Assembly (NCBI GenBank): GCA_045643185.1
Contig: JAZUKH010000279.1
Location: 3,301 to 67,300, forward strand
Source: Myxococcota bacterium
Lineage (GTDB): Bacteria; Myxococcota_A; Bradymonadia; UBA4248
Direction of reading: 5' to 3'
DNA: 64,000 nt
Shown here: positions 21,999-38,103 of the stretch, piece by piece
How the letters are laid out: each line of letters begins with the position of its first letter
How positions within the stretch are numbered: position 1 is the first letter of the stretch
Notes under the pieces: generated by a model
Databases searched by the model: none
The model's input: the letters and a program-made list of their open reading frames with translations, nothing else
Told to the model about the DNA's origin: nothing
Program-made: the position numbers and the translations under genes

Positions 21999-23492
21999 AT
22001 GTTCACAACCAATCTTTTGTTGACCTTGCTCTTTTTGGCAGTCACGCTCGGTGTGTTTTATGTCGTGCCTGCCTCCAGAAGGTGGATGGTTCTGCTTACG
22101 GCAAGCGTGATTTTTTACGCATCAGCACATCCATACCTGCTTTGGCTCGTCGTCGCAACCGTCACATGGACCTGGTTTGTCGGCCTCAAACTCACAGCCG
22201 CTTCACAAGGCGCTTCGCGCAAATCCTGGCTCGTCGCAGGCATCCTGCCCATCGTACTCGTGCTTGGCGTCTTCAAATACTTCAACTTTTTTAGCACTTC
22301 CATCGCCGAACTGCTCAACCAATTTGGACTTGCCGCCGACCCGCTCACGCTCCAGCTCGTGCTGCCACTCGGCCTCTCATACTACTCGTTCAAGCTCATC
22401 AGCTACCTCGTCGATCTCTACCGCACAAAACGTGAAGCAGAATGCCATCTGGGCTATTTTGCAACCTACACACTCTATTTTCCACAGATCCTGTGTGGTC
22501 CCATTGAGCGTTCCACCACGTTTCTTTCTCAACTTCACGCTGGACCAGTTTTTGACCAGACACGTTTCGCCATAGGCATTCAACGCATCATCCTCGGTCT
22601 GTTCAAAAAAGTCGTCATCGCAAACAGCCTAATTTTGTATGTCGACAAAGTCTTTGCTGCACCTCAACAATTTCCAGGGCTCGCCCTTTGGACTGCTGCT
22701 TTTTTGTATTCCGTACGAATTTATTGTGATTTCTCTGGCTATTCAGACATCGCCGTCGGCATGAGTCAGATGTTCGGCCTTGATTGTCCCAATAACTTCA
22801 ATTGCCCGTATTTGGCTCGCAATAACCGCGACTTCTGGAACCGCTGGCATATTTCTCTTTCGACCTGGCTGCGTGACTACATTTATATTCCGTTGGGCGG
22901 CAACCGCGTAGGCGCCTGGCGACACCGTCTGAACATTCTCATCACATTTTTTGTGAGCGGTCTTTGGCACGGTGCCAACTGGACTTTCGTGTGTTGGGGA
23001 CTCATTCATGGCGTCTGGAACATGCTGACGCCCAAAACCAAACGAGCCACAACAAACACGCCAGCTTCCAATCAGACAACACAACCAGCTACCACCACAC
23101 GCCGTTTTACGTCCACCCTGGTTTTGATCTGTCAGACTTTGTTAACCTTTGCTGGTGTGACGGCTGCCTGGATCTTCTTTCGATCACCCAGTTTAGGTGC
23201 CGCATGCGACTATTTTGCCCGTATGTTCACGGCTTTTTCGCTCACACCACAGGCATTGGCACTCGCCATTTTGCCCTTTACCGGCGATAACACATGTCTC
23301 ATACATTTTTTGGCGTCGATGGGCTTCATTCTTTTCCTCTTCATCTATGAATGTCGACAAACTTATGCGCGTCATTCAATACAGAACGATGACAAGCCGG
23401 TGCTGTCCATGCCTGTTTTTACCATGATGCTTGTGGCCATCCTCATGTTTGGTGCCTTCGGTCAATCCAGTTTTATGTATGCCAACTACTAA
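21999..23492 (+). CDS. MBOAT-family membrane O-acyltransferase (AlgI/DltB/PatA-like)
   Basis: Polytopic; CDFSGYSDIAVG, FWNRWHISLSTWLRDYIYIPLGG, and the catalytic His in GLWHGANW. Confidence 0.8.
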   Translation: MFTTNLLLTLLFLAVTLGVFYVVPASRRWMVLLTASVIFYASAHPYLLWLVVATVTWTWFVGLKLTAASQGASRKSWLVAGILPIVLVLGVFKYFNFFSTSIAELLNQFGLAADPLTLQLVLPLGLSYYSFKLISYLVDLYRTKREAECHLGYFATYTLYFPQILCGPIERSTTFLSQLHAGPVFDQTRFAIGIQRIILGLFKKVVIANSLILYVDKVFAAPQQFPGLALWTAAFLYSVRIYCDFSGYSDIAVGMSQMFGLDCPNNFNCPYLARNNRDFWNRWHISLSTWLRDYIYIPLGGNRVGAWRHRLNILITFFVSGLWHGANWTFVCWGLIHGVWNMLTPKTKRATTNTPASNQTTQPATTTRRFTSTLVLICQTLLTFAGVTAAWIFFRSPSLGAACDYFARMFTAFSLTPQALALAILPFTGDNTCLIHFLASMGFILFLFIYECRQTYARHSIQNDDKPVLSMPVFTMMLVAILMFGAFGQSSFMYANY

Positions 23493-23501
23493 CGCCCTGC
23501 C

Positions 23502-24452
23502 ATGAATCTCCTTAAACGATATCTCATCCTCATCGCAGTCGCCTTCGTTCTCGTCGTTCTGCTTAGCCTGGTCAAAAACGAGTTTGCTCGACATTTACCC
23601 GGCTACGACACCGGACTGCCTGCCGTTGAAAGGGAATCGGCATCCAACCAGCTAGATGCTCTATTCATGGGATCCTCGACATTCAAACGCGGTCTGGACA
23701 TGACGCAATTCGACCAGGCCGGACGAAACGGGGCGTTTTTAGTGGCCTACAATGGCAATCAACCCTTCACGATGCAGATGGCCTTGTCCGAATTGTGGTC
23801 ACATGGTGTGCGTCCCAAACGCCTGTACGTGGATTTTTACCCCTACCTTGTGGCCGCCAACCCCAAACTGAGTGACGCGCGTCTTCTGGTTGAGACCGAC
23901 ACAGCCTTCAAATGGTCTTTATGGCGACGCCTGTGCGAAGCGGATGCCTGTGACGCCACGACGTTTCACGAAACATTCGTCACCTCAAACAACGTACTGA
24001 TCCTGTTTTGGCCGCTCTACCGTTGGATGAATCGAGAAAAAACGTATCGAGGCGCATCACGGGTTCCCATGCCAGGTTCGACGACTGACCAGTTGAATAC
24101 CAAACCGCTTTTTGGACAGCGCGACGGGCTTCAAAGCATTCAGTTGACAGCCCTGCAACGCCTGACCGAAGAGGCCAAATCGCTGGGCATCGAGGTTTAC
24201 TTCGTCGAAACACCCAAATACACGCGCCTCCAAAACGACCATACCTATCAGACCTATTTGCAAGCCATGATCGATGCAGCATTGACCTATTTGCCGCGCG
24301 AAAATTTGATCTTGGCGAGCGACCTGACATTTGACCAAAGCGAACCGACGTATTTTAATGATCTGGTACACCTTTCTACAACCGGCGCAAAAGCCTTCAC
24401 AACAGAGCTGATTCGTGCAATCGAACGTGTCGATAAAAAATCAAAAAAATAG
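23502..24452 (+). CDS. MBOAT partner protein (DltD/AlgJ/AlgX-like SGNH-type, N-terminally anchored)
   Basis: Single N-terminal TM (LILIAVAFVLVVLLSL). The C-terminal DLVHLSTTG (DxxH) is typical of SGNH-like acyltransfer partners. Encoded immediately 3' of the MBOAT gene. Confidence 0.5.
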   Translation: MNLLKRYLILIAVAFVLVVLLSLVKNEFARHLPGYDTGLPAVERESASNQLDALFMGSSTFKRGLDMTQFDQAGRNGAFLVAYNGNQPFTMQMALSELWSHGVRPKRLYVDFYPYLVAANPKLSDARLLVETDTAFKWSLWRRLCEADACDATTFHETFVTSNNVLILFWPLYRWMNREKTYRGASRVPMPGSTTDQLNTKPLFGQRDGLQSIQLTALQRLTEEAKSLGIEVYFVETPKYTRLQNDHTYQTYLQAMIDAALTYLPRENLILASDLTFDQSEPTYFNDLVHLSTTGAKAFTTELIRAIERVDKKSKK

Positions 24453-24602
24453 CTTGCAAGCCTGTGGATAACTCGTTAAAAGTGGCGCGCTTTTGCGCAT
24501 GGTGTGCAAATGCGATTGATTTTAATCCGGCAGGAAAAGGCCGGGTGGGATGGCGGCAACAGGCAATGGTGCCTTGATGTTACGGTCCCTGGAGGAAAAA
24601 CG

Positions 24603-25277
24603 ATGAAAGCAATTCTTGGTCGCAAAATTGGTATGACACAGATCTTCACGGCGGATGGCGAAAGCGTTCCTGTGACGGTCGTTAAATGTGGTCCCTGCAA
24701 AGTTATCCGCAAAAAAACTGTGGATGGCAAAGACGGCTATGCTGCACTCGTCGTGGGCTTTGAAGAAGCCCGTAGTGCTGAAGTAAACGGCGAAACCGTT
24801 TACAAAATGAACAAAGCTGAACTCGGCGTTTTCACGAAAGCCGGTGTTGAGCCCATGAAATCCGTTCACGAAATCCGCCTCGACAGCGCTGAAATCGACA
24901 AATACGAAGTCGGTCAGGAACTCCGCGCTGATCTCTTCGTCGCCAACGAATATGTTGACGTCATGGGAACGAGCAAAGGCTCCGGTTTCACGGGTGTCAT
25001 GAAACGTCACAACTTCGCTGGTGCCAAACGTTCACACGGTGCCCACGAATATATGCGTCACGGCGGCTCAATCGGTACGACCTCTACGCCAGGTCGTGTT
25101 CTCAAAAACCGCAAAATGGCTGGTCAGGATGGCAACGCTCGCGTCACCGTCCAGAACCTCAAAGTCTTCAGCGTTGACGCTGATCAGAACCTCATCCTCG
25201 TCCGTGGTTCCATCCCTGGTGCTAACGGCTCCGTCGTTACGGTTCAGAAATCCGTCAAAAAAGGCATGAGCTGCTAA
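24603..25277 (+). CDS. rplC: 50S ribosomal protein L3
   Basis: MKAILGRKIGMTQIF…VTVVK…GKGFTGVMKRHNF(A)G…SHG is canonical L3. RBS ggagg at 24591. Not flanked by other S10-operon genes. Confidence 0.85.
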   Translation: MKAILGRKIGMTQIFTADGESVPVTVVKCGPCKVIRKKTVDGKDGYAALVVGFEEARSAEVNGETVYKMNKAELGVFTKAGVEPMKSVHEIRLDSAEIDKYEVGQELRADLFVANEYVDVMGTSKGSGFTGVMKRHNFAGAKRSHGAHEYMRHGGSIGTTSTPGRVLKNRKMAGQDGNARVTVQNLKVFSVDADQNLILVRGSIPGANGSVVTVQKSVKKGMSC

Positions 25278-25303
25278 TCGCTCTCTGCTGGAAAGCACTT
25301 AAA

Positions 25304-25328
25304 GCCCGCGTTCATCGCGGGCTTTTTT
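25304..25328 (+). terminator. Rho-independent terminator after rplC
   Basis: gcccgcgttcatcgcgggc followed by tttttt. Confidence 0.65.
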
Positions 25329-25456: not shown

Positions 25457-25486
25457 TTGCACACCACGTCACGTTAAGCGTATAAT
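25457..25486 (+). promoter_or_regulatory. Sigma-70-like promoter (-35 TTGCAC, 18-nt spacer, -10 TATAAT) for the 25532 gene
   Basis: TTGCACaccacgtcacgttaagcgTATAAT, about 45 nt upstream of the TTG start. Confidence 0.45.
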
Positions 25487-25531: not shown

Positions 25532-28525
25532 TTGAAATATCAGGTATCGGAGAAAGCGCCCCGCGCGTGGCTTCAATTTGAGGCGATTTGGATAGCGGTC
25601 ATTCTGCTTTTATGTTTAGCAGGCCTGGCAGTCAGCTACATCGTGCCCAAAATTAACTTCGACACAGCTGTTGTCGGCACCAATGTCGTCGTCAAACGCG
25701 CGCCTGAAGACGAAGTCATACACCAAGGCGACATCATCGAAGCCATTGACGGTCAAACGATCTCGACCCGTGCTGAACTCTACTACCAACTGGCGCGCCA
25801 TCCCGAACAAGTCGAAGCGACCATCAAACGCAACGGCGCACGTTTCGTCCGTCCCGTCACGGCTGCATCCCTTGCCAATGACACGCTCCCTGTCGGTCTC
25901 ACCCCCGAAGATCGTCCCATTGCCATTAGTTTCGGCGGCGACTACTCTACACTTGAAGGCTATGAGATCAGTCAGCTTCATAACCTGCTCATCGAAAACC
26001 GGGCGGAAAATGCTTCCGTCGTCTTTAGGCGCCCCACCGAACAGACCAATGTCCTGCTTAACTTTAAGCCCGCAATCGGACGAACACTGATCCTTTCGGC
26101 AACGTTGCTCCTCATCATCGTCATGGGCTTTGTCGCACTCAGAATGCGACAAAACGTCATGAAAGGCGTCTATATCAATACGGTGCTTGGTTTGACCGTA
26201 TTGGCTGCCATGTGGACGATTTTGGGCGCAACCTTGCTTTGTATGCCCATTCTCTTCCTATTTGGCATGATCGCCATGGGAATGCTCAAGTCCTTTGACC
26301 TGAATTACCACATCTGGGATACAAACAAGCTTCAAAAACCCAATCTTTGCCTCAGAACGGTTCTGTATCTGATTCCCGCTGTTTGTCTGTTGGCACCGAT
26401 CGTCATGTGTTTGAAAGAACTCCCCATGATATGGGGTGGTTCGAACGATGCCCTGAGCGAGATCAGACTCGATGCGCTCTCCATTATTCCGGTTTTATTG
26501 GTCATTGGCATGACCATGATCGATGCCGGTCGCAGCGCCTATCGCGCTTACAGCGGGCGCCGTTTACAGCCCCGTGACTTTGCACTGTTTATCGCATTTG
26601 TCCTCGCACTCACTAGTTTAGTCATTATGTGGAGTGACTTTGCGACGGCACGTATTATTCTGGTCGCGACGCTGATCGCACAGGCCACGGGTGACGCTAT
26701 GGAATGCTTTACCAAGCGTGCACTCCAAAAAGATGTCTCTTACGATGACGATATTTTCGCGGCGGATCCCATTCGTGAAGCGCTCGAAGAAGCTGAAACG
26801 ATCTTGAATCACGCGTGGGTCGTACAAGCCATCATTGATCGCCCAGAACCTCGTCACGTCGTGGCCATCGCCGCGTCGGATGACACAGACGAGGACGTCA
26901 ACGGACTCGCCTTACACGTGCTGTCAAATACGTGGCGCGATTTTCTCGATATTTACCGCGTCGAAGGCATGATCGAAGGGGGGGATTCTCCCGCCTGCGA
27001 CATCGCGAATCGACTCGGTATCGTCTTCGCCCAACCCATTGCAGAAAAAGTCGGCGGTTCGCTGACCAGCATCACGCTCTTGGTCAGCACAAGAGAAATG
27101 CCCGACGCCAACGCGCCACAAAACGCATCGCCCAGCGTTTCACAGCGCGCTGCTCTGTCAAAAATTGCTGAAAAACTCGCTGAAAACGCACTCGCACTCG
27201 TCTATCACTCCACCGAGATGAGCCTTGAATACATCGGCGATGACCTTGACGAAATCGCAAATCGCATTCACAACACGGCTTCTTTCCCGCGTGCTTTGCA
27301 CAATCCAACGATCCCACTCCTCGCTACGGAGATCCCACACGGCCTGCTCGAAGAAGATGACGTCCAACAAGCTGACGATGATGTCGTCGAGATACAAGAT
27401 CCAGAACAAAATATAGACGACTACAGCACTAAAGTCTTTCAGGAAGAAGTCAACCTGCTGCGCAGTCAGGTCCACACTTTGTGTAGTCAACAGATCCGTG
27501 CCTTTGCCCTCGCGGAGATCGAGTTCACCGAAGATCAAAAAGCAGCCCTTGAAGACCTCAGATCCCTCGAAACCCCAATCGTGTTGATCGGTGAAAGAGG
27601 CGTCGGCAAAACAATTTTGACGCTTTCGGCCCATCAGGAACGATGCGAAGGACCGTTCTTGCAGATCGACGCAGGTGAGATTCCTGAAACGATCCTGGCG
27701 CTCGACATGTTTGGCGATTCTGAACATCCCGGCCTGATCAAAAGCGCTGTCGGCGGCTCGTTGCTCATCAAAAACGTCGACAAACTCTCAACACCGATCA
27801 TCAGTGACATCATGGAAGCCATCGACGCGGTTGCCGCTGAAGGCACCATCGATCTTTACATGACGATCGCAATTCGGGATGACGAAGTGATCACCTCCAA
27901 GTTTGACCGCCACCCCAACCTATTGCCAGAACGCTGTCGTGAAATCATCGATCACTGCGACGCAGAAACCGTGTTCCTCAAACCACTTCGTGAACAGGAA
28001 GACATCCTGGATGCGGCGATGTTCTTCATGCAGCGCCAGTCCATGCGAAGCGACAAGAACATCATGAGCATCGAAACGAATGCCCAGGCTGCTTTAAGCA
28101 CCTATCGTTGGCCGGGCAACTTCTCGGAACTTCGTTCAGTGATCGAACGCGCCGTCATGCGTGCAGAAGGCGACGCCTTGACTGTTCACGACCTCGGCGC
28201 CGATTTTGCCTCGCTCATCAACGCCGACACCAAAAATACCTCGCTCGACCAAATCTATTACGAACAGATCGAGCAATTACAAACATTAAATGAAAAACAA
28301 CTTGCACAGATCGATCGACTGAATGAGCGCATCAAAACGCTCGAATCCTCGCAGGATACCCCCCAAGATGACTTCACAGTCGGCACGTTCGACGAGATCG
28401 AAAAAGCTATGCTCGTGCGTATCCTTAACCGATACCACAATGATCCCGAAGTCGCCGTCGAAGCCCTCGCTACGAACAAAACCAAATTCTTTAATAAATT
28501 AAGAAAATACGGCCTTTATTCTTAG
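25532..28525 (+). CDS. Membrane-anchored regulator: N-terminal TM, PDZ domain, polytopic TM region, degenerate sigma-54-interaction (AAA+) domain, C-terminal Fis-type HTH
   Basis: TTG start with RBS aggga. IWIAVILLLCLAGLAV (TM). PDZ-like DEVIHQGDIIEAIDGQTISTRAELYYQLA. About 6 TM helices at residues 190-380. PIVLIGERGVGKT (Walker A, GESGTGK-like). LLIKNVDKL (Walker B-like). No GAFTGA. WPGNFSELRSVIERAV (WPGNxREL). C-terminal LVRILNRYHNDPEVAVEALATNKTKFFNKLRKYGL (HTH). Confidence 0.65.
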   Translation: MKYQVSEKAPRAWLQFEAIWIAVILLLCLAGLAVSYIVPKINFDTAVVGTNVVVKRAPEDEVIHQGDIIEAIDGQTISTRAELYYQLARHPEQVEATIKRNGARFVRPVTAASLANDTLPVGLTPEDRPIAISFGGDYSTLEGYEISQLHNLLIENRAENASVVFRRPTEQTNVLLNFKPAIGRTLILSATLLLIIVMGFVALRMRQNVMKGVYINTVLGLTVLAAMWTILGATLLCMPILFLFGMIAMGMLKSFDLNYHIWDTNKLQKPNLCLRTVLYLIPAVCLLAPIVMCLKELPMIWGGSNDALSEIRLDALSIIPVLLVIGMTMIDAGRSAYRAYSGRRLQPRDFALFIAFVLALTSLVIMWSDFATARIILVATLIAQATGDAMECFTKRALQKDVSYDDDIFAADPIREALEEAETILNHAWVVQAIIDRPEPRHVVAIAASDDTDEDVNGLALHVLSNTWRDFLDIYRVEGMIEGGDSPACDIANRLGIVFAQPIAEKVGGSLTSITLLVSTREMPDANAPQNASPSVSQRAALSKIAEKLAENALALVYHSTEMSLEYIGDDLDEIANRIHNTASFPRALHNPTIPLLATEIPHGLLEEDDVQQADDDVVEIQDPEQNIDDYSTKVFQEEVNLLRSQVHTLCSQQIRAFALAEIEFTEDQKAALEDLRSLETPIVLIGERGVGKTILTLSAHQERCEGPFLQIDAGEIPETILALDMFGDSEHPGLIKSAVGGSLLIKNVDKLSTPIISDIMEAIDAVAAEGTIDLYMTIAIRDDEVITSKFDRHPNLLPERCREIIDHCDAETVFLKPLREQEDILDAAMFFMQRQSMRSDKNIMSIETNAQAALSTYRWPGNFSELRSVIERAVMRAEGDALTVHDLGADFASLINADTKNTSLDQIYYEQIEQLQTLNEKQLAQIDRLNERIKTLESSQDTPQDDFTVGTFDEIEKAMLVRILNRYHNDPEVAVEALATNKTKFFNKLRKYGLYS

Positions 28526-28611
28526 CCAATAATCGCTGTATGATGTGACCATGTGTGCGTATATACGCACATTTAACCGGCCCATGCCGATATTCATAAA
28601 GGAGTCATTCC

Positions 28612-28926
28612 ATGGCCAAAATTGAACGTGAAATTAATCATCATCTCTCCCTCGAAGCTGCCAAAACGGCTGCTGCAGAACTCGTAAACAAAGTTCAGTC
28701 AAACTTTGGTTCCCTGATCAGCGAGATCAAATGGAACGATGACAAAACCGTCGCCGATGTCAAAGGTAAAGGCTTCACGGGGAATTTCAAAATTACCGAT
28801 TCCAGCGTCAAAATTCTGATCGAACTTGGTCTTTTGACTAGCCCGTTCAAAGGCAAAGTCGAAGAAAAGATCGACGAATATGCTAAAAATTTAGAAAATG
28901 ATCCGAATGCCGACAAACAGGCCTAA
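28612..28926 (+). CDS. Putative polyhydroxyalkanoic acid system protein (PHA_gran_rgn-like, ~100 aa)
   Basis: Pattern of about 100 aa: MAKIEREINHHLSLEAAKTAAAELVNKVQSNFG…WNDDKTVADVKGKGFTGNFKITDSSVKILIELGLL…KGKVEEKIDEYAKNL resembles the TIGR02610 family layout. Recalled from memory; unverified. Confidence 0.45.
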   Translation: MAKIEREINHHLSLEAAKTAAAELVNKVQSNFGSLISEIKWNDDKTVADVKGKGFTGNFKITDSSVKILIELGLLTSPFKGKVEEKIDEYAKNLENDPNADKQA

Positions 28927-28947
28927 TTTCGAATCATAATCAATAAA

Positions 28948-28972
28948 GGCGCCCACAAGGCGCCTTTTTTTT
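28948..28972 (+). terminator. Rho-independent terminator
   Basis: ggcgcccacaaggcgcc followed by tttttttt. Confidence 0.65.
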
Positions 28973-29034
28973 GGTTACAATACAATCGGGAAATATCTAA
29001 TTAGTTCACGCTCCAGCCTTGTTCTTGGGGATGA

Positions 29035-29135
29035 GTGGCATGGCTATCGCAAAGCGATACGCCATGCTTGTCGCGCTATGCCTACGGCATACGCGCTCTG
29101 AAAACCGGCTATCGCAAATGCGATACGCCGGTTTC
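29035..29135. repeat. Two tandem palindromes related to the family A core (tGGCTATCGCAAAGCGATACGCCa and cGGCTATCGCAAATGCGATACGCCg)
   Basis: Both hairpins have the same GGCTAT/ATACGCC arms with the conserved one-base bulge. Confidence 0.6.
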
Positions 29136-29220
29136 GCCTTGGCCTTCTATTAAAATCAGTCGATACGCAATGACACGGCTCTTGGCACTCGCCCCTCAAC
29201 CCGTCGCATATTATCCAATA

Positions 29221-30798
29221 TTATGATTTCACGAACCGTTTTATCTCACACGTATGTTCTTTTGTTTTTTCATCATAATTCACGCCGACGAATAACAGAT
29301 CCCCCTGGTAGTGTTCGAGGGCTTTGAAATAGTTATTATTTTCGATTTGGCTCAAAGCGGTTTCAGTCGAGCTGTTGCGCTTCAGTTCGACGATCATCGC
29401 CGGCGTATTGGGAATATACGGAATGAATGCAATATCGGCGTAGCCCTTGCCCGCAGGTAACTCAGAAATTACGGTATAGCGCGTATTTGCATAAAAATAG
29501 GCAAATCGAATCACGCTCTGAAAACACCCTTCGTTGTTGTATTGTAAATTCGATACAAGTTCGGTGTGCGCGTCGTCGATAGCCTTAGCCACGGCGTTTT
29601 CATCCCCCTGAATCGTGAGATCTAATAAATCTTCAGAATGTTTTACAATGGCAAAAGCCTTGGCATAATCCGCTTCATCCCGAATGGACAAAATCCATTG
29701 CTGCCGAATTTCTCTATTTGGAATATAACAACACTCCGTTTTGCGATCATAAGCCAGATAGCCCAAATGAATGAGATATGTAAAGACGTCGTCTTTGTGG
29801 CGAAAATCGGTCATCGTATTCAAATACCCCGACGTATCAACTTTGACTTTACCGCCGGCGATCATGTTCATGACGTCGTCCCGAATGCCATCAAAATTCA
29901 TCAGGATATATTGTTTAAGGGCATCATAAGACCCGGTCTGCGTCCAATACCCTCCATATTCGCGATCATTCATCGCTTGAACGACGGAATTTGGATTATA
30001 TATATGGTATTCACCCATGTGATAACCTTCATACCAGCGACGGCATTCATCGACATCCATATCACAGGCATCACACAATGCTTCCGTTTCTTCCTGGGTA
30101 AATCCAACGAACTCGGTCAACTGCCTAGAATTGACCATTGTATATTCACGAAATATATTGAGTTTAGACTGGTTCTTGTCGCGCACGATCGGCAAAATTC
30201 CTGTCAAATAGACGAGCGCAAACGCAGGTGATAAGTTTGCATTTTTAAACATCGCATTGAGAAAAGCCAGATACGAATTAAATATTGTCGCATTCACCTT
30301 TTCGCGCACTAAAACATCGTATTCGTCAAGAATCAAAACGAATTGTTCACCAGTTTTCGAATATATTCGTTGAATACATTTATCCAGGTTGTCTGTATCT
30401 TTGATTCCACAATTTGGATACTGTTCCTGAAGCTCTTCTCTTACATTAGCAGTGAACAATGGCACAATATCTTCATTACGCGTTGAGCTTGAATAGCACG
30501 CGTTGACATCGATGTGAATGACATTGAACTGATTGAGATACGTCTCAAAATCGGGGGTTTTCGCGATCTTAAGCTTTTCAAAAATGGGACGTGAATTCGC
30601 GAGTTTGCTATAATAGGCAGCGATCATAGCACCAGCCATTGACTTACCAAAACGGCGCGCACGCGACACGCACACAAAGCGTTCTTCGGTATTCAACAGC
30701 TGATTGAGTTCATGAATCAACATCGATTTATCGACATAAATTCTCGAACGAACGCCCATTCTCAACAACGCTTCACTAGGATTGACAAACAGTCCCAT
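29221..30798 (-). CDS. AAA-ATPase_like (PF09820-type) protein with C-terminal PD-(D/E)XK nuclease-family domain (PDDEXK_9-like)
   Basis: MGLFVNPSEALLRMG…YVDKSMLIHEL…FVCVSRARRFGKSM (signature SRPRRFGKS motif of the family). Length about 525 aa. C-terminal …GYADIAFIPY…ELK fits a PD-(D/E)XK core (D…E.K). RBS gagggag 7 nt upstream of the ATG at 30798; the 30885 start in the ORF track is an extension. Confidence 0.7.
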   Translation of the reverse strand: MGLFVNPSEALLRMGVRSRIYVDKSMLIHELNQLLNTEERFVCVSRARRFGKSMAGAMIAAYYSKLANSRPIFEKLKIAKTPDFETYLNQFNVIHIDVNACYSSSTRNEDIVPLFTANVREELQEQYPNCGIKDTDNLDKCIQRIYSKTGEQFVLILDEYDVLVREKVNATIFNSYLAFLNAMFKNANLSPAFALVYLTGILPIVRDKNQSKLNIFREYTMVNSRQLTEFVGFTQEETEALCDACDMDVDECRRWYEGYHMGEYHIYNPNSVVQAMNDREYGGYWTQTGSYDALKQYILMNFDGIRDDVMNMIAGGKVKVDTSGYLNTMTDFRHKDDVFTYLIHLGYLAYDRKTECCYIPNREIRQQWILSIRDEADYAKAFAIVKHSEDLLDLTIQGDENAVAKAIDDAHTELVSNLQYNNEGCFQSVIRFAYFYANTRYTVISELPAGKGYADIAFIPYIPNTPAMIVELKRNSSTETALSQIENNNYFKALEHYQGDLLFVGVNYDEKTKEHTCEIKRFVKS

Positions 30799-30948
30799 GT
30801 TCACTCCCTCAGGCATTTCGCACAACCAACCGTCGAAGCTTGTCGCAACACGGTTATGCTTCATTCTAGCATAAAATATGGCCAATGGCGATTGATCACA
30901 GAAATCGTTGCGGCAACAATAAGTTACAACTCAGTTACAGAAGCATAG

Positions 30949-31196: not shown

Positions 31197-33485
31197 CTAT
31201 TCAGCAGCAGGCGCTGCAGCGGCTGCATCGGCAGCAGCAGCGGCATCAGCCCCTTCGGCGGCTGCATCAGCAGGCGGATTGGCCGTTTCGTTAAGGGAGT
31301 CGATGATCTTATTAAACCAATCAGAGATGAGGTGCATATTATCGGTGAAATAGAGCACCGCAAGACCGATGACAATGATGGCCAGGAGCGTCAGAAGGAT
31401 GATTTTACCAACCGACGGACCTTTAGGCGCATACGGATCTTCGAGGTTAACTTTCGGATATTTCGCCAAATTGGTGAACGTGGCACCGAACGGAATGTTG
31501 ATGAGAATCTGGGAGTTGATGGCCCAGCCATTGGCGTTGAGAACTGGCGTGAGGTTACGTTTACGAAGTTTCTGCCAGGCGAGGAACATCGAAGGACCGG
31601 AGATCAAAACGATGATGGCAATGATGAGGAGTGGCAGGTTATACCACTGAGCGGTAATGCCTTTGGCGAGGCTGACGAGGGCGCTCGCGATATAGCCGAT
31701 GGCCATACCAATGGCAGCAAAGATACCAGCAAACTTGGCGATATCAAAGCCACCGATACTTGCCCCAGCGCCTTTTGCAGCATCGGCGCCTTCTTTCGTC
31801 GTAGGCAGCTCACTACCGGCTTTTTCCGTGATGTTGGCATCCACAGCGGCGTTTTTATCACTAGCCGTTTTGTTGATACGGTCAGAAACGAGGCGAGCAA
31901 GTTTCTTATAAGGCGCCCAGAAAGCCTGACGAACGCTGATCGGATTATCGACGATCTTCGTGATGACTGCATCCCAGTCGAGGCCATCGCGATCATAGAA
32001 GACGGCGTTTTTGCCGACGCGCAGATTATCGACATCACCGTCGGTAAGAACGGCGGCGATCGTCATCGTCGTGCCTTTAACTTTTGACGTGCAGTCACAA
32101 TACACGACGTACATGCCGCTCAGGTCAGCAACTTCACCCTGTTTGCCCATATCGGCAACCTTGATACAGAGCTCGGTGCTGCGCTGATCGATGTAGAGGA
32201 TACCAGCCTGGAAAACGGCTTTGTTTTCAGGCTCGCGCGAGTAGAAATCGCTGAACGTGACAAAGTTTTTGAGAAGTTTGTAGAAATTTTTGTAATAACG
32301 AAGGAATTTTTCAACCGCGTCAATCGAAGCAGATTCAGCTTCGAGGGCTTTATCATCATCAATGATCTTGCTGAGATCAGCTTTGCGATCGTCGGCAAGT
32401 ATCTTTTCAATCTTCTCAAGGCCCAGAGATTCAACTTCGCTGCCTTTTTTGGCATCGTTCCAAGCAGCATAGGCCCCGAATTTAGCGAGGATATCAGCCC
32501 ACTGAGCTTCGGTCATGGTGTTGGCACCGGCCAATTCTTTGTCGAGGACGAGGGATTTGACTTTGGCAAAAGCGGCCTGCCAGGCGGGGTTGATGTTATT
32601 CACATCGAGTGAGAGCGTTGATTTTCCGGTCACACGGGCAATGGGGTAAGCCGAGATCTCGTCGTTACAGGCCACAAGGTCTTTGGCGCTGATCTCACCG
32701 ATACGAGCCGCCGAAATATCGAGGGCTGCAGTGCTTTCGGTGTTGAAAGCAGCGAGTTTACAACGCATGAAGTAGTCGGCAACTTTGTCTTTGATGGCGT
32801 TACAGGCGTCGAAAGCCGCCGCCGTGTCATCCCCAAAAGCGAAGACGTCTTTTGTGCCGGCATCCTTCCAAGCTTTGTAATCAGCGCAAGCAGCATAGAA
32901 TTTGTCGAGCAGATCGACATTGATACCTTTTAAGCCGCTTCTGTCGTCCACGCCACCAACCGTATCGATCGCGCATTTGATCGTGTCTTTAAGCACGTCG
33001 TCATCGGTCGACTGTTCCGTAATGATGCCATCACCATTCAAGGCTGTTTTGGCAAAAATGGCGATGCTGTCGCTGGCTTCGGCGAGCGAGATGGAATCTT
33101 TTTCGAGGCCCAGATTGCTCAGGATCTGTTTGGCAGAGCTGTAAAGTTTCTTACCCTCTTCATTATCCTGATTGAACTCCGACAAAGCGATCGAATCTTC
33201 CTGTTTAAGCAGGGCATCCGGATCTTTGATGACGGAAGTCAACCAAGTGGCAGCGTCCATGACTTCATTGACACGGATCTTACCATCGTTGTTGGTATCC
33301 ATGAGTTTGAGCGTCTTCTCGTCGAATTCCAGACCAACGACGGGACAACTCAAAACGGTCCAAAGTTTCTGGTCCAATTCACGCAAATGTGCGATGTCCT
33401 CACCCGTAGTAATTTTGACGCGAGTAACACCACCAATGGTGCAAAATTTCCAGTTATAACCATTATTCGCGGATTTTTTAGCCAT
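31197..33485 (-). CDS. Large hypothetical protein (762 aa) with C-terminal transmembrane helices and an Ala-rich acidic tail
   Basis: N-terminal DTNNDGKIRVNEV (EF-hand-like DxNxDGxI loop). About 560 aa of soluble alpha/beta region. TM helices near residues 590-720 (IFAAIGMAIGYIASALVSL; LLIIAIIVLISGPSMFLAW; IILLTLLAIIVIGLAVLYF). Tail …PPADAAAEGADAAAAADAAAAAPAAE. Confidence 0.5.
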   Translation of the reverse strand: MAKKSANNGYNWKFCTIGGVTRVKITTGEDIAHLRELDQKLWTVLSCPVVGLEFDEKTLKLMDTNNDGKIRVNEVMDAATWLTSVIKDPDALLKQEDSIALSEFNQDNEEGKKLYSSAKQILSNLGLEKDSISLAEASDSIAIFAKTALNGDGIITEQSTDDDVLKDTIKCAIDTVGGVDDRSGLKGINVDLLDKFYAACADYKAWKDAGTKDVFAFGDDTAAAFDACNAIKDKVADYFMRCKLAAFNTESTAALDISAARIGEISAKDLVACNDEISAYPIARVTGKSTLSLDVNNINPAWQAAFAKVKSLVLDKELAGANTMTEAQWADILAKFGAYAAWNDAKKGSEVESLGLEKIEKILADDRKADLSKIIDDDKALEAESASIDAVEKFLRYYKNFYKLLKNFVTFSDFYSREPENKAVFQAGILYIDQRSTELCIKVADMGKQGEVADLSGMYVVYCDCTSKVKGTTMTIAAVLTDGDVDNLRVGKNAVFYDRDGLDWDAVITKIVDNPISVRQAFWAPYKKLARLVSDRINKTASDKNAAVDANITEKAGSELPTTKEGADAAKGAGASIGGFDIAKFAGIFAAIGMAIGYIASALVSLAKGITAQWYNLPLLIIAIIVLISGPSMFLAWQKLRKRNLTPVLNANGWAINSQILINIPFGATFTNLAKYPKVNLEDPYAPKGPSVGKIILLTLLAIIVIGLAVLYFTDNMHLISDWFNKIIDSLNETANPPADAAAEGADAAAAADAAAAAPAAE

Positions 33486-35037: not shown

Positions 35038-35079
35038 TTTTACGGACGTGATCTTTATATATTTCAAGGAGACATGCTC

Positions 35080-38000
35080 ATGAAACGCTCTCTTTTGACT
35101 GTTTTCGCTTTATCTGTCGTGTTGTGTGCCTGTTCCGAAGAAACGCTGTCCAATCTTAATAGCTCGGACGAGCCTTCTCAAGAAGATCCCAATAACGACA
35201 ACCCAAAAACGGATGACCCCAAAACGGATGAGCCCGAAACACCGGCCAAATCAGATGGCTCACTAGGCAGCATCTGTCATGACAAAGTCCGTTGCTTGGA
35301 CGATCTTTCGTGTATGCAGGGATTTTGCAGGCGCTATGTCGACCTTGGAGATGCCTGCGACGAGTTTAATCTCTGCGACGAATCTGAATGCGTGAAATCA
35401 GAAGGTTCGGCGCAAGGCAAATGCGTTCGAGAATCTTCGCTCCACCACACATGTAATGACACGACCATCGTCTGCCCTGCCCCCTTACAATGTATCGCCC
35501 TTTCAGCGAACATACACCGTTGTGAAGACGCCGTTGGCTTGGGCGAAGCCTGTCAGGATGGCTTCACTTATTGTGAAAACGGCCTCCTTTGCCACCCTCA
35601 GACCAACCGCTGCGCCACACGCGCCACGATCGGTGAAACGTGCGACGACACACACACCTGTGAAATGCCTTATTCATGCGTCAAAGGCGTCTGTGCCACA
35701 CGCGTCAACGAAAACTGTGACGCCTCGCACGTATGTATCAGCAACACCGCAGTCTGTTATGACGGCAAATGCATCGAATCGAATGAATGCGCCAGCGAAT
35801 CCGACTGTTCAGCAGATACGTACTGCTGCACCGAGGACGCCTGTAAAGTCAAAAATGTGTGCCTGCCCTATGGCGAAGGTCCGCGTGAAACCACGAACGA
35901 CGCTTGTGAATATGAGACCGTACCCGGCCTTTTTGAAGCAGACATCCAGTGTGAATGGGCTAAACCCGCAAAAGATGACCCATTTCCCAAGCAGGACAGC
36001 ATCGTCACCCCGACCTTTGTCGCCAAAACGCCGCATAACACGGCCTCTGGCAACACGCTGATCGTTGCGACCTACCAACATGGCATTTGGGAGCCTTGTG
36101 ACGAAGCTTACCAGTTTGGCGTGATCCGCTTCATCGATCCTGAAGACTGCCACGTCATAGAAAACTTATACGACAAGAAAAACTACGTTTCTGCCGGCGC
36201 CACCATGGCCATAGCAGACGTCGACGGCGACGGTTTTGTAGAAATCTTCGCTCAACGCTCTCCCCACCAGGCTAGCAACGGCACAACAGCCGGCGGCATC
36301 GTCGCCTTCGGCTGGGACAAAGAACAGAACAAGTATGTGACCAGGTGGAGTCAGATCAACGGCTTAAAACAAAAAAACTATGGTTGGGGCGGTTTGTCCG
36401 TACACGACCTCAATGGCGACAATATTCCCGAAGTGATCAATCCGTATGGCGAAGTGCTGAATGCACAGACAGGCGAAAAACTGAATGGTACTCAAGTCAT
36501 TGATAATGCCATGTTTGCCACGATCGGCGACCTCGACAACGACGGCAAAGCCGAATTCATTGCCCGTTCTGGTAAAGTCTATGAATGGACGATCACTCGC
36601 GACGAGGCCGGTGCCATTACCAGCCAAACCTGGGTGCTCGAATACGACACGACCACGACGGGGTATCCGCTCAAAGCCTATGCTGACTTCGGCACGCCGG
36701 GTGCCACACCTGAAGAATTCGACTGGAACACCAAGGATGGCATCGCCGAAATCGTGTCGACGCGAGGTATAGACGCCGGTAAAGGCGCCTCACAGGTCGC
36801 CATGCACGCGCTCACTCAAACCGTCAACGAGGACGGCACCATCAAGAAAGGGCAACAACGTATTCTCTACATTGACAAGCTTTACGGCGGCGGTGCCCCC
36901 ACCATCGGTGACTTTGATAATGACGGTATGCCCGAAGTTGGTATCGCTTTTGGCGACTACTATGCCGTCATCGACCCGCGTTGCAAGAAAGACAAAGACG
37001 GAAATCTCCCAGAGGGGTGTTCCGCTGAGAATTATCTCTGGCGTCAAAAGAACCAGGACGATTCCTCATACACGACCGGTTCATCCGTCTTCGACTTCGA
37101 TGCAGACGGCCAGATCGAAGTCGTCTACGCCGACGAATGTTATACCCGCATTTACGACGGCAAAACAGGCGATGTACTCTTCTCATCCAAGCAAAGCAGC
37201 CGAACCGCATACGAAATGCCGATCATTGCCGATATTGACAACGATGACTCAGCTGAGATCCTGATGGGGGCCAACCTTCCGGAACGTTCATGTTCCGAAC
37301 TCGATGCGATCCATCGTGGCATTCGTTGCCACGAAGATGCCGACTGCAAATCAAACGTTTGTGAAAATAACTTCTGCCGTTGTGAAAGCGATGCACAGTG
37401 CAACTGGCGCAAAAACGAAAACGACGTCGTTATATCTGAATACAAATGTACGACACCGCTGGCTTCAGACAAAGAGGTTAACAGCAAAAACGTTTGTCGA
37501 GCTTACCGTAAAATCGGCAATCCGCCGACGGGACTTAGAGTCATGCGCGACCGTTACGACCGTTGGGCTTCCTCACGTAACATCTGGAACCAATTTGCCT
37601 ACTCGATTACCAACGTCAACAACGATCTTTCGATTCCGACGCTGACCGACTGGGTCCAGAACTTCCTGTCACCGTCCTTCAACAACTTCCGTGCAAATTC
37701 ACAAGGCCGTCTCGGTCGCAACGTTGCTCCGGACATCACCGGCAAGCTCAACAAAGACAACCTGTGCAAACGCACCAGCAGCCAAGACGCGAAAAATGCC
37801 ATCACGTTAACAGGTGTCGTGTGTAACCGTGGTACAAAGAGCGTCGCCACGGCTATGCCTGCATCATTCTACGAAGTGCTAGAAGACGGCAGCAACGGTC
37901 GCAAGTTCTGCACAGCCCATACAGCCAGTAACGTCCCCGTCGGCGGTTGTCTTGAAGTTTCCTGTACGCTTGACGACATTGTCCCAGGTACATTAGTGCG

Positions 38001-38103
38001 TATGGTCTCGAACGACGACGGTGAAGGTGGACGCACCACGGTTGAATGCAACAGCGACAACAACACCGACGAAATCATTCTCGAAAGCTGCCCAGTTTAC
38101 TAG
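35080..38103 (+). CDS. Large lipoprotein paralog: Cys-rich repeats, FG-GAP-like beta-propeller with an inserted Cys-rich segment, and a C-terminal Ig/CARDB-like domain
   Basis: Lipobox LSVVLCAC. Cys-rich N-terminal half (CHDKVRCLDDLSCMQGFC, CDEFNLCDESECV…). Ca-loop blades DVDGDGFVEIF, DLNGDNIPEV, DLDNDGKAEFIA, DFDNDGMPEVGIA, DFDADGQIEVVYAD, DIDNDDSAEILMG. Insert CHEDADCKSNVCENNFCRCESDAQC. Same overall architecture as 13456..16422. Best RBS precedes the ATG at 35080; the ORF track lists 35074. Confidence 0.7.
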   Translation: MKRSLLTVFALSVVLCACSEETLSNLNSSDEPSQEDPNNDNPKTDDPKTDEPETPAKSDGSLGSICHDKVRCLDDLSCMQGFCRRYVDLGDACDEFNLCDESECVKSEGSAQGKCVRESSLHHTCNDTTIVCPAPLQCIALSANIHRCEDAVGLGEACQDGFTYCENGLLCHPQTNRCATRATIGETCDDTHTCEMPYSCVKGVCATRVNENCDASHVCISNTAVCYDGKCIESNECASESDCSADTYCCTEDACKVKNVCLPYGEGPRETTNDACEYETVPGLFEADIQCEWAKPAKDDPFPKQDSIVTPTFVAKTPHNTASGNTLIVATYQHGIWEPCDEAYQFGVIRFIDPEDCHVIENLYDKKNYVSAGATMAIADVDGDGFVEIFAQRSPHQASNGTTAGGIVAFGWDKEQNKYVTRWSQINGLKQKNYGWGGLSVHDLNGDNIPEVINPYGEVLNAQTGEKLNGTQVIDNAMFATIGDLDNDGKAEFIARSGKVYEWTITRDEAGAITSQTWVLEYDTTTTGYPLKAYADFGTPGATPEEFDWNTKDGIAEIVSTRGIDAGKGASQVAMHALTQTVNEDGTIKKGQQRILYIDKLYGGGAPTIGDFDNDGMPEVGIAFGDYYAVIDPRCKKDKDGNLPEGCSAENYLWRQKNQDDSSYTTGSSVFDFDADGQIEVVYADECYTRIYDGKTGDVLFSSKQSSRTAYEMPIIADIDNDDSAEILMGANLPERSCSELDAIHRGIRCHEDADCKSNVCENNFCRCESDAQCNWRKNENDVVISEYKCTTPLASDKEVNSKNVCRAYRKIGNPPTGLRVMRDRYDRWASSRNIWNQFAYSITNVNNDLSIPTLTDWVQNFLSPSFNNFRANSQGRLGRNVAPDITGKLNKDNLCKRTSSQDAKNAITLTGVVCNRGTKSVATAMPASFYEVLEDGSNGRKFCTAHTASNVPVGGCLEVSCTLDDIVPGTLVRMVSNDDGEGGRTTVECNSDNNTDEIILESCPVY

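Follow-up and report, generated by a model that had tools for sequence, protein, structure and literature searches.

Bacterial enhancer-binding proteins (EBPs) are, by textbook account, soluble AAA+ motors that open sigma-54 promoters. What, then, is a protein that carries an EBP-type AAA+ module behind a multi-pass membrane domain? The question is raised by a gene for a 997-amino-acid (aa) protein in a 64,000-nucleotide (nt) stretch of Myxococcota DNA (contig JAZUKH010000279.1), which is called the window below; all of the evidence presented here is computational. The protein, a rare one, looks like a novel receptor design in which genes are controlled directly from the membrane. In the interpretation that we favour, and rate at slightly better than even, it would be a membrane-integral, one-component regulator of the atypical EBP kind, independent of sigma-54 and non-hydrolysing, joined in cis to a receptor and accompanied by a small partner protein.

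25532-28525, + strand: coding sequence of the 997-aa membrane-embedded EBP-like protein, with a TTG start and an AGGGA Shine-Dalgarno sequence 7 nt upstream

Membrane topology and periplasmic domain

25556-25642, + strand: transmembrane (TM) helix TM1, residues 9-37, N-terminus cytoplasmic (hydropathy; AlphaFold2 (AF2) helix with a predicted local distance difference test score (pLDDT) of 86-94; positive-inside count)
25643-26074, + strand: periplasmic domain, residues 38-181, with a PDZ core at about 44-109 (nt 25661-25858) and a second alpha/beta lobe (Pfam, Protein Data Bank (PDB) profile, AF2)
26075-26701, + strand: seven-helix membrane bundle TM2-TM8, residues 182-390 (AF2 helices, pLDDT mostly 85-94; hydropathy)

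Hydropathy and two AF2 models agree on eight membrane helices (residues 9-37, 182-204, 209-237, 239-264, 272-294, 318-340, 347-365 and 370-390). A previous sequence-only reading of this DNA had described an N-terminal TM helix followed by about six more; the anchor and the multi-pass domain stand, with the further helices numbering seven, for a total of eight. The N-terminal AF2 model covers the first 625 residues and was built from a 12-sequence alignment (mean pLDDT 78.6, the TM and periplasmic parts mostly reaching 85-94), and the full-length model, built from a 4-sequence alignment at a pLDDT of 44.6, was used for helix positions only. A family-wide positive-inside count gives the predicted cytoplasmic loops a lysine plus arginine density of 0.169 and a positive net charge, and the short predicted periplasmic loops a density of 0.073 and a negative net charge. 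Since the helix number is even and the chain starts inside, the part of about 600 residues that holds the AAA+ module and the helix-turn-helix (HTH) is placed in the cytoplasm, and the HTH does not fall outside it.

Within the seven-helix bundle, P239, K253, H260 and D331 are invariant. The bundle has no Pfam match, and no Pfam seven-TM (7TM) family is reached even at E<=1. Foldseek returned 7TM receptor bundles for all of its top matches, each of them weak (best E 0.03, TM-score <=0.46) and none at E<=1e-3, which leaves homology to receptor bundles without evidence.

The periplasmic domain is two-lobed and beta-rich (residues 44-177), contains the expected PDZ helix (AF2 pLDDT 78-90) and holds the invariant residues P120, G122, D127, F165 and R167 in its second lobe. 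The window protein alone remains sub-threshold for PDZ_2 (E=6e-4, 20.5 bits versus a Pfam cut-off of 27); among 14 relatives, PDZ_6 matches 6 and PDZ_2 matches 3. When a profile of the periplasmic domain was compared with the PDB, the top match was the PDZ tandem of an RseP-type site-2 protease (E=3.8e-7), followed by the PDZ1 domain of DegQ/DegP and then by more than 50 PDZ chains. These profile matches confirm the previously proposed periplasmic PDZ assignment, which is solid at the level of the family. Membership of the site-2 proteases themselves was rejected, as HExxH and NxxPxxLDG are absent from all 20 members; a match to TIGR00054 is confined to the PDZ region (E=0.0016).

A degenerate AAA+ module under purifying selection

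27524-28225, + strand: EBP-type AAA+ module, residues 665-898, catalytically degenerate (Pfam, NCBIfam, HMMER against PspF structures)
27590-27613, + strand: Walker A GERGVGKT, residues 687-694 (alignment)
27710-27733, + strand: L1/GAFTGA deletion site within FGDSE|HPG (PspF alignment)
27761-27781, + strand: Walker-B equivalent LLIKNVD (PspF alignment)
27812-27841, + strand: L2 deletion site MEAID|AVAAEG (PspF alignment)
28109-28132, + strand: WPGNFSEL lid motif (alignment)

By descent the cytoplasmic module resembles that of sigma-54 activators, as had been claimed for it. The Sigma54_activat profile (PF00158) scores 34.4 bits against a cut-off of 20.2, covering only profile positions 12-118 of 168, AAA_lid_14 scores 55.8 bits, and a Sigma54_activat-type AAA+ domain is matched in 14 of 14 relatives. 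HMMER aligns the module to the structures of PspF, NtrC1 and ZraR with E values down to 3.8e-19. The NCBIfam EBP equivalogs all stay at or below 78 bits versus cut-offs of 440-800; the best of them, DhaR and PspF, reach about 78 bits against cut-offs of 443-551.

The state of the catalytic machinery was read from an alignment of 20 family members in PspF numbering, verified at K42, W56, N64, T86, D107/E108, R162/R168 and R227. The Walker A lysine (K42) is retained in 19 of the 20, and both Walker A and the WPGN motif are present in the window protein as the sequence-only reading had it; its description of an altered ESGTGK motif does not hold, GERGVGKT being a near-normal EBP Walker A (GERGTGKE in PspF). 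The L1 loop that carries GAFTGA (PspF 81-89) is removed in 20 of 20 members by a clean 9-residue deletion, which bears out the claimed loss of that motif, and an equally clean 9-residue deletion removes the L2/pre-sensor-I loop (PspF 126-134), again in 20 of 20. The Walker B pair D107-E108 is replaced by K747-N748 in the window protein, by K-N throughout its clade and by E-N, Q-N, N-N, E-G, S-G, E-A or E-D in other members, with the catalytic glutamate (E108) present in none of the 20. The arginine-finger region (R162/R168) is not conserved across the family, R168 corresponding to H808 in the window protein, and the sensor-II arginine (R227) is retained in 4 of 20 members, with S865 in its place here. 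'GAFSGA' strings seen at some of the loci do not lie in the reading frame of the regulator gene and were discarded.

Degeneracy had thus been rightly noticed and understated, since L2, Walker B, the arginine fingers and sensor II are lost along with GAFTGA; the suggestion of a signalling ATPase finds no support where the catalytic glutamate, arginine fingers and sensor-II arginine are gone and the glutamate is missing from all 20 relatives. From this residue pattern we infer a module unable to remodel the sigma-54 holoenzyme or to hydrolyse ATP, of which nucleotide binding is expected at most.

All domains of the protein are under purifying selection. Synonymous divergence (dS) is saturated everywhere, with nonsynonymous divergence (dN) well below dS in every domain and dN/dS at roughly 0.05-0.18 overall. 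The AAA+ module is the best-conserved domain (81% aa identity and dN 0.125 in the pair L001/L003), which, together with dN far below dS, indicates a maintained pseudo-ATPase rather than a decaying one. A domain that has lost its catalytic set and is still the best conserved implies that the AAA+ fold has been kept for another job, for example nucleotide- or partner-dependent assembly.

C-terminal helix-turn-helix

28388-28507, + strand: Fis/NtrC-type HTH, residues 953-992 (the TIGR02974 PspF alignment runs to residue 993)

The Fis-type HTH that the sequence-only reading had placed at the C-terminus is borne out at the level of the family. HTH_8 matches 7 of 14 relatives (best E 2.4e-11), and the C-terminal tail aligns with the canonical GNKSxAARxLGLxRxTFxNKL motif of the distant members. 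F986, K989 and K992 are almost invariant, the last 40 residues rank among the best conserved of the family, and dN/dS of the C-terminal part is about 0.13-0.17.

Segments connecting membrane, AAA+ module and HTH

26765-27088, + strand: cytoplasmic alpha/beta domain, residues 412-519, of no recognisable family (AF2 alpha-beta3-alpha2-beta2, pLDDT about 70-89)
27227-27406, + strand: acidic disordered linker, residues 566-625 (pLDDT <50)
27422-27517, + strand: long helix before the AAA+ module, residues 631-662 (low-confidence full-length AF2; LLRSQ...SQQxR pattern kept)
28244-28348, + strand: long helix between the AAA+ lid and the HTH, residues 905-939 (AF2; heptad-like EQxQxLQ...QIxxL kept)

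The cytoplasmic alpha/beta domain has four invariant residues, W468, L472, E478 and G479. For residues 400-580, the family profile found no match among PDB sequences, and single sequences searched against Pfam at E<=5 gave no recurrent family. The GAF-like look of the domain drew no support from the profile or Pfam searches, and Pfam finds no REC, PAS, GAF or ACT match in the 997-aa protein. The linker that follows contains a PHGL motif (residues 602-605, nt 27335-27346), whose P602 is invariant in the 12-sequence alignment. In the low-confidence model, the helix at residues 631-662 is a possible coiled coil.

Transcription unit and partner gene

25301-25325, + strand: intrinsic terminator that closes the preceding rplC (L3) gene and delimits the unit on its 5' side (10-bp stem, 7 GC pairs, T-run)
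25457-25486, + strand: sigma-70-type promoter, TTGCAC (25457-25462), 18-nt spacer, TATAAT (25481-25486) (sequence and promoter scan)
28526-28611, + strand: spacer of 86 nt from the regulator to the partner gene, without a terminator and containing an 18-bp palindrome
28612-28926, + strand: partner gene for a 104-aa PHA_gran_rgn-family protein (PF09650, TIGR02610)
28945-28967, bidirectional: strong intrinsic terminator closing the two-gene unit

The regulator gene has a single possible start, the TTG: 6 codons before it the frame is closed by a TAA, the interval contains no ATG, GTG or TTG, and the start codons TTG AAA TWT CAG are kept in 4 related loci. The identical 997-aa protein is also present in an NCBI-derived protein collection. 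A consensus promoter scan alone is weak, with 5 promoter-like sites versus 3.8 expected; the promoter is accepted because TTGC and TATAAT are invariant across 4 diverged loci whose flanks are only about 50% identical, which is better evidence than the scan. Both the clean sigma-70 promoter and the TTG start of the earlier description therefore hold. A terminator occupies the equivalent position upstream of the regulator in related loci.

Downstream lies the gene most closely tied to the regulator. The partner scores 60.3 bits for PF09650 against a cut-off of 26.6 and 42 bits for TIGR02610 against a cut-off of 40.25; no solved relative was found by sequence. A gene for a PHA_gran_rgn protein of about 95 aa adjoins the regulator in all 17 of the 17 loci that extend far enough, usually 40-90 nt downstream on the same strand and convergently in one clade (L011-L014). 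It is strongly conserved, and it persists at 25-28% regulator identity, where the synteny with SmpB and L3 is gone. PHA_gran_rgn is listed among the Pfam phasin families, with a putative family function (PMC5658603). In the window the regulator and partner are probably co-transcribed; they are not separated by a terminator, and a strong one follows the partner.

The spacer between the two genes contains a perfect 18-bp palindrome, TGTGCGTATATACGCACA (TGT-N12-ACA form), at 28554-28571. The window holds a single copy of it and shows no enrichment of related sites, and folding of its RNA gives nothing significant; the corresponding spacers of related loci contain other short inverted repeats at this place. 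The palindrome could be an operator or an mRNA hairpin.

A small family in uncultured relatives of Bradymonadia

The family comprises about 20 distinct sequences among roughly 15 billion proteins searched. A word-indexed search of 5.8 billion proteins gave only three full-length relatives, at about 52% identity, and an exhaustive profile search with the N-terminal 640 residues against 1.84 billion cluster representatives gave 14 proteins at E<=1e-10, about 10 of which are further clusters of ~1000-aa proteins at 19-42% identity, all with the full architecture. A metagenome scan added ten more loci. The distant members were obtained solely through the exhaustive profile search and the metagenome scan; the 14-sequence alignment searched against the 5.8-billion-protein set returned only the close clade and generic kinase-GAF-EBP proteins. 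The nearest soluble relatives carry the source label 'sigma 54-interacting transcriptional regulator'. Membership of an anti-phage defence system was considered with PADLOC and rejected, the regulator showing generic RtcR/PspF-type AAA-lid similarity only and the partner no match.

The hosts of the family are uncultured relatives of Bradymonadia (Myxococcota). The adjacent L3 shares 78% identity with its counterpart in a Bradymonadales metagenome-assembled genome and 54-59% with the L3 proteins of Myxococcota, Bradymonadaceae and Lujinxingia. Other genes of the window, encoding a Ser/Thr kinase, FG-GAP giants, a matrixin and a NIF phosphatase, are consistent with a Bradymonadia-related lineage. 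In a set of species-representative genomes, the only match is labelled 'Proteobacteria bacterium RGIG464, dairy cattle colon'.

Proposed mechanism and alternative explanations

In the mechanism that we propose, the PDZ-type sensor would receive a signal from the periplasm, in the simplest case the C-terminus of a peptide as with PDZ domains of the DegS/RseP type, and pass it by way of the 7TM bundle and the novel cytoplasmic domain to the AAA+-HTH part, whose dimeric or oligomeric state would change. Nucleotide binding would at most tune the oligomeric state of the regulator. With the protein still in the membrane, the AAA+-HTH module would reach DNA through the acidic tether of about 60 residues and act as an activator or repressor at sigma-70 promoters, in the manner of TyrR, VpsR, NtrX, DhaR or Rhodobacter NtrC. 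For the partner we propose a role as a co-regulator through binding to the dead AAA+ module, comparable to that of PspA on PspF, as the first product under control of the regulator, or as both. Parts of this mechanism have precedent: EBPs without a GAFTGA motif, including some whose Walker B departs from consensus, function at sigma-70 promoters and do not need hydrolysis to do so (PMC6158489; bioRxiv 10.1101/2023.06.06.543975), DhaR, the top NCBIfam match here, is a sigma-70-dependent EBP without the sigma-54 motif (PMC10084136), and many DNA-binding proteins function while anchored in the membrane (PMC10269533). The AAA+ module without GAFTGA supports the earlier suggestion of a pseudo-EBP, here a membrane-integral sensor and predicted DNA binder in one polypeptide. 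The sequence-only reading had made no mention of the partner gene, the L2 deletion, the cytoplasmic alpha/beta domain or the existence of a very rare yet conserved family.

Several observations weigh against this interpretation. The HTH has drifted in the clade of the window, where it has no HTH_8 match and only HTH_50 at E=0.11. The upstream regions of 9 loci show no common operator motif beyond the close-clade promoter, and the palindrome in the spacer is confined to the window locus. The first Walker B acid is a lysine in the window clade, which may impair even nucleotide or Mg binding. The role of the partner is purely inferred, its phasin-like family name being an annotation only, and the full-length AF2 model is poor enough that the arrangement of the domains is not fixed.

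A bolder form of the same idea, which we regard as rather unlikely, takes the membrane part as a GPCR (G-protein-coupled receptor)-like 7TM receptor with a PDZ ligand head, whose chain continues into a pseudo-AAA+ switch that binds nucleotide without hydrolysing it and into an HTH; ligand would set the oligomeric state of a membrane-resident factor, with the ~95-aa partner as co-factor. If true, it would be an undescribed signalling design and an end-point of the EBP lineage, from motor to pure allosteric relay.

Comparably doubtful is regulated proteolysis, an idea raised alongside peptide sensing in the sequence-only reading and a variant of the favoured interpretation that differs in the last step: a periplasmic event at the PDZ domain would lead to cleavage in the linker, near PHGL, or in the membrane and so free a soluble AAA+-HTH fragment for sigma-70 promoters. 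The PDZ domain is closest to those of the proteolytic cascades of RseP and DegP/DegQ, the disordered acidic linker with its invariant proline in PHGL sits precisely where the membrane-proximal part gives way to the output, and some membrane-bound regulators, CadC among them, are reported to be controlled by proteolysis (PMC11484849). On the other hand, the protein lacks protease motifs, its neighbours include no conserved protease gene, PHGL is missing in the most distant members, whose linkers are rich in Pro/Ala, and a long tether makes release unnecessary for contact with DNA.

It is less probable still that the protein is not a transcription factor at all, and that the dead AAA+ module and drifted HTH form a protein-interaction scaffold with a post-transcriptional output, for instance by binding and releasing the partner. 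The lost catalytic residues, an HTH below Pfam detection in the window clade, the failure to find an operator upstream of the operon and the invariable presence of the partner would all fit such a scaffold. Against it stand the high conservation of the C-terminal 40 residues, including F986, K989 and K992, with dN/dS of about 0.13-0.17 there, the canonical Fis-type motif of the distant members and the significant HTH_8 matches in 7 of 14.

Sigma-54 is common in Myxococcota-related lineages, the protein passes the Sigma54_activat gathering score of Pfam and its soluble relatives are labelled 'sigma 54-interacting'; a genuine sigma-54-dependent activator, bound to the membrane by chance, is nevertheless contradicted by the sequence and very improbable. 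L1 with GAFTGA and L2 are deleted in all 20 members, the catalytic glutamate is never present, the arginine fingers are not conserved, the Sigma54_activat match is partial and the NCBIfam equivalogs fall far below their cut-offs. Sites of the -24/-12 kind (TGGCAC-N5-TTGCW-like) are not in excess in the window (32 versus 36.5 expected), and neither the window nor the fetched loci contain rpoN, an RpoN box or an in-frame GAFTGA; a literature search on Bradymonadales and sigma-54 gave nothing relevant. Least credible of all is a decaying fusion or pseudogene without function, which the lost canonical motifs and extreme rarity might suggest and which conservation contradicts, as ORFs of about 1000 codons are intact in some 20 lineages (19-54% identity, 47-66% GC), dN is far below dS in every domain, and the promoter, start codon and partner gene are all conserved.

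Comparison with known systems

Receptors of the 7TMR-DISM type combine an N-terminal anchor, an extracytoplasmic domain, seven TM helices and a cytoplasmic output; the likeness to the window protein is a lead only. Regulators of the ToxR/CadC type have an N-terminal winged helix (OmpR-type) near the membrane and a single TM helix, whereas the HTH described here is C-terminal, of Fis type and some 600 residues from the membrane, behind the AAA+ module. Several regulators of the ToxR and TcpP type have a small associated protein (ToxS, TcpH, VtrC), which may be compared with the partner gene. Control of an EBP by the membrane is known in trans, from RedR2 with BtdS (PMC10084136). PspA binding PspF is a further example. 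PspF and RedR2 are soluble, GAFTGA-positive and sigma-54-dependent and make non-covalent contact with the membrane, whereas here a single chain includes the membrane domain together with a dead AAA+ module. The PDZ domain is most similar to the PDZ sensors of RseP and DegS/DegP/DegQ (E=3.8e-7 to 1e-5), which share its periplasmic location; unlike RseP, DegS and DegP, the protein has no protease domain or motif, and its PDZ domain is coupled to a 7TM bundle and a DNA-binding-type output.

Among EBPs, the nearest counterparts are the atypical ones (VpsR, TyrR, PhhR, HupR, HsfA, NtrX, DhaR and the NtrC proteins of Rhodobacter and Caulobacter), which share an EBP-type AAA+ module with a C-terminal Fis-type HTH, a missing or deleted GAFTGA loop and, in some, a non-consensus Walker B (N-D in VpsR) (PMC6158489). 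These are described with cytoplasmic REC, ACT/PAS or GAF input, in place of which the window protein has an eight-TM receptor with a periplasmic PDZ domain. The family also goes beyond them in losing L2, both arginine fingers and mostly sensor II, and in having an extra cytoplasmic domain and an obligate partner gene. A likeness to the arrangement proposed here is seen in RedR2 with BtdS, an EBP dependent on the membrane or a membrane protein, with a small partner that binds the regulator (PMC10084136).

The window protein also agrees with the definition of a transmembrane transcription regulator, which asks for one or more TM regions and a DNA-binding domain within a single polypeptide, and like ToxR, TcpP, CadC and the surveyed set it adds an extracytoplasmic sensor (PMC10269533). 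Of the surveyed regulators, 56% are single-pass, compared with eight TM helices here (PMC10269533). In that survey, HTH_8 is reported for 72 of 50,302 transmembrane regulators, and Sigma54_activat was not found in the portion of its supplementary text that was searched, which is indicative only (PMC10269533). An architecture of membrane receptor plus EBP was not found described in the literature searched, which did not extend to two classical reviews of EBP architecture.

Genomic neighbourhood

The remaining genes around the pair vary among loci, and none qualified as a functional partner. L3 and SmpB were rejected because their synteny is lost in the distant loci; the order SmpB-(cold-shock-domain gene)-L3-regulator is kept in loci L001-L013. 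In the window, rplC (24600-25277, + strand; TIGR03625 254 bits versus a cut-off of 142.9) stands alone, outside any S10-type operon, between SmpB plus inserts and the regulator, with its own terminator at 25301-25325. A gene of the MBOAT (AlgI/DltB-like) family and an adjacent gene for 316 aa without a Pfam match (21999-24452, + strand) stand where related loci have a cold-shock-domain gene, between SmpB and L3; they are a local insertion, probably encoding an O-acylation pair. Genes of a type II secretion system (T2SS) were likewise rejected as partners, being downstream in some close loci only and absent from the window.

In the high-GC (64-66%) distant clade, the regulator-partner pair is followed on the same strand by a gene for a HEAT-repeat protein of about 625 aa (L016 7876-9759, L017 8661-10541, L018 11204-13078; copies in different loci share 40% identity). 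No other locus has it, nor does the window, and it was rejected as a partner because it follows the pair in this most distant clade only. Upstream of the distant member in L018 (2340-7489, - strand) lie genes for GAF-histidine-kinase-like, Peptidase_M74/HEAT and PAS-GGDEF-EAL proteins, a signalling-rich neighbourhood not seen in other loci.

Beyond the two-gene unit, the stretch 28970-30885 looks like a variable island. It holds GGCTATCGCAAA(G/T)GCGATACGCC repeat units spaced by 65-66 nt (29042-29129), an incomplete third copy at 29161 and, beside them, a gene for a 554-aa AAA-ATPase_like plus PDDEXK_9 protein (29221-30885, - strand); gene and repeats are absent from homologous loci, where L001 has an AAA_15/AAA_21 plus DUF4276 pair at this position and L003 continues directly into T2SS genes. 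For a 762-aa protein (31197-33485, - strand), the only family match is a weak one to EF-hand; hydrophobic segments occur towards its C-terminus, its tail is of low complexity and rich in Ala (…AAAEGADAAAAADAAAAAPAAE), and it finds no relative in the fetched loci.

FG-GAP/FG-GAP_3 repeat proteins of about 1000 aa are encoded at 13456-16422 (+ strand) and 35074-38103 (+ strand), and a similar FG-GAP protein lies two genes downstream of the regulator-partner pair in L016 (9855-12467); they may be a trait of the lineage rather than linked to the regulator. A Hsp70-family open reading frame (ORF) of only 522 aa (39492-41060, - strand) is directly followed by a 377-aa ORF without a Pfam match (38342-39475); the arrangement may represent a gene that has been split or an atypical pair of the Hsp70 type.

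Implications

The reach of these findings is limited by uncultured hosts, a tiny family and functional statements derived computationally. Within these limits, the family shows how far the loss of sigma-54 can go, with the sigma-54-contacting loops and the catalytic set gone from a domain that is nevertheless the best conserved of the protein. Should DNA binding from the membrane be borne out, a single protein would form a compact link between a periplasmic signal, probably a peptide, and transcription in a little-studied gut-associated bacterium related to the predatory Bradymonadia, and the uncharacterised PHA_gran_rgn family would gain its first functional context outside polyhydroxyalkanoate (PHA) loci.

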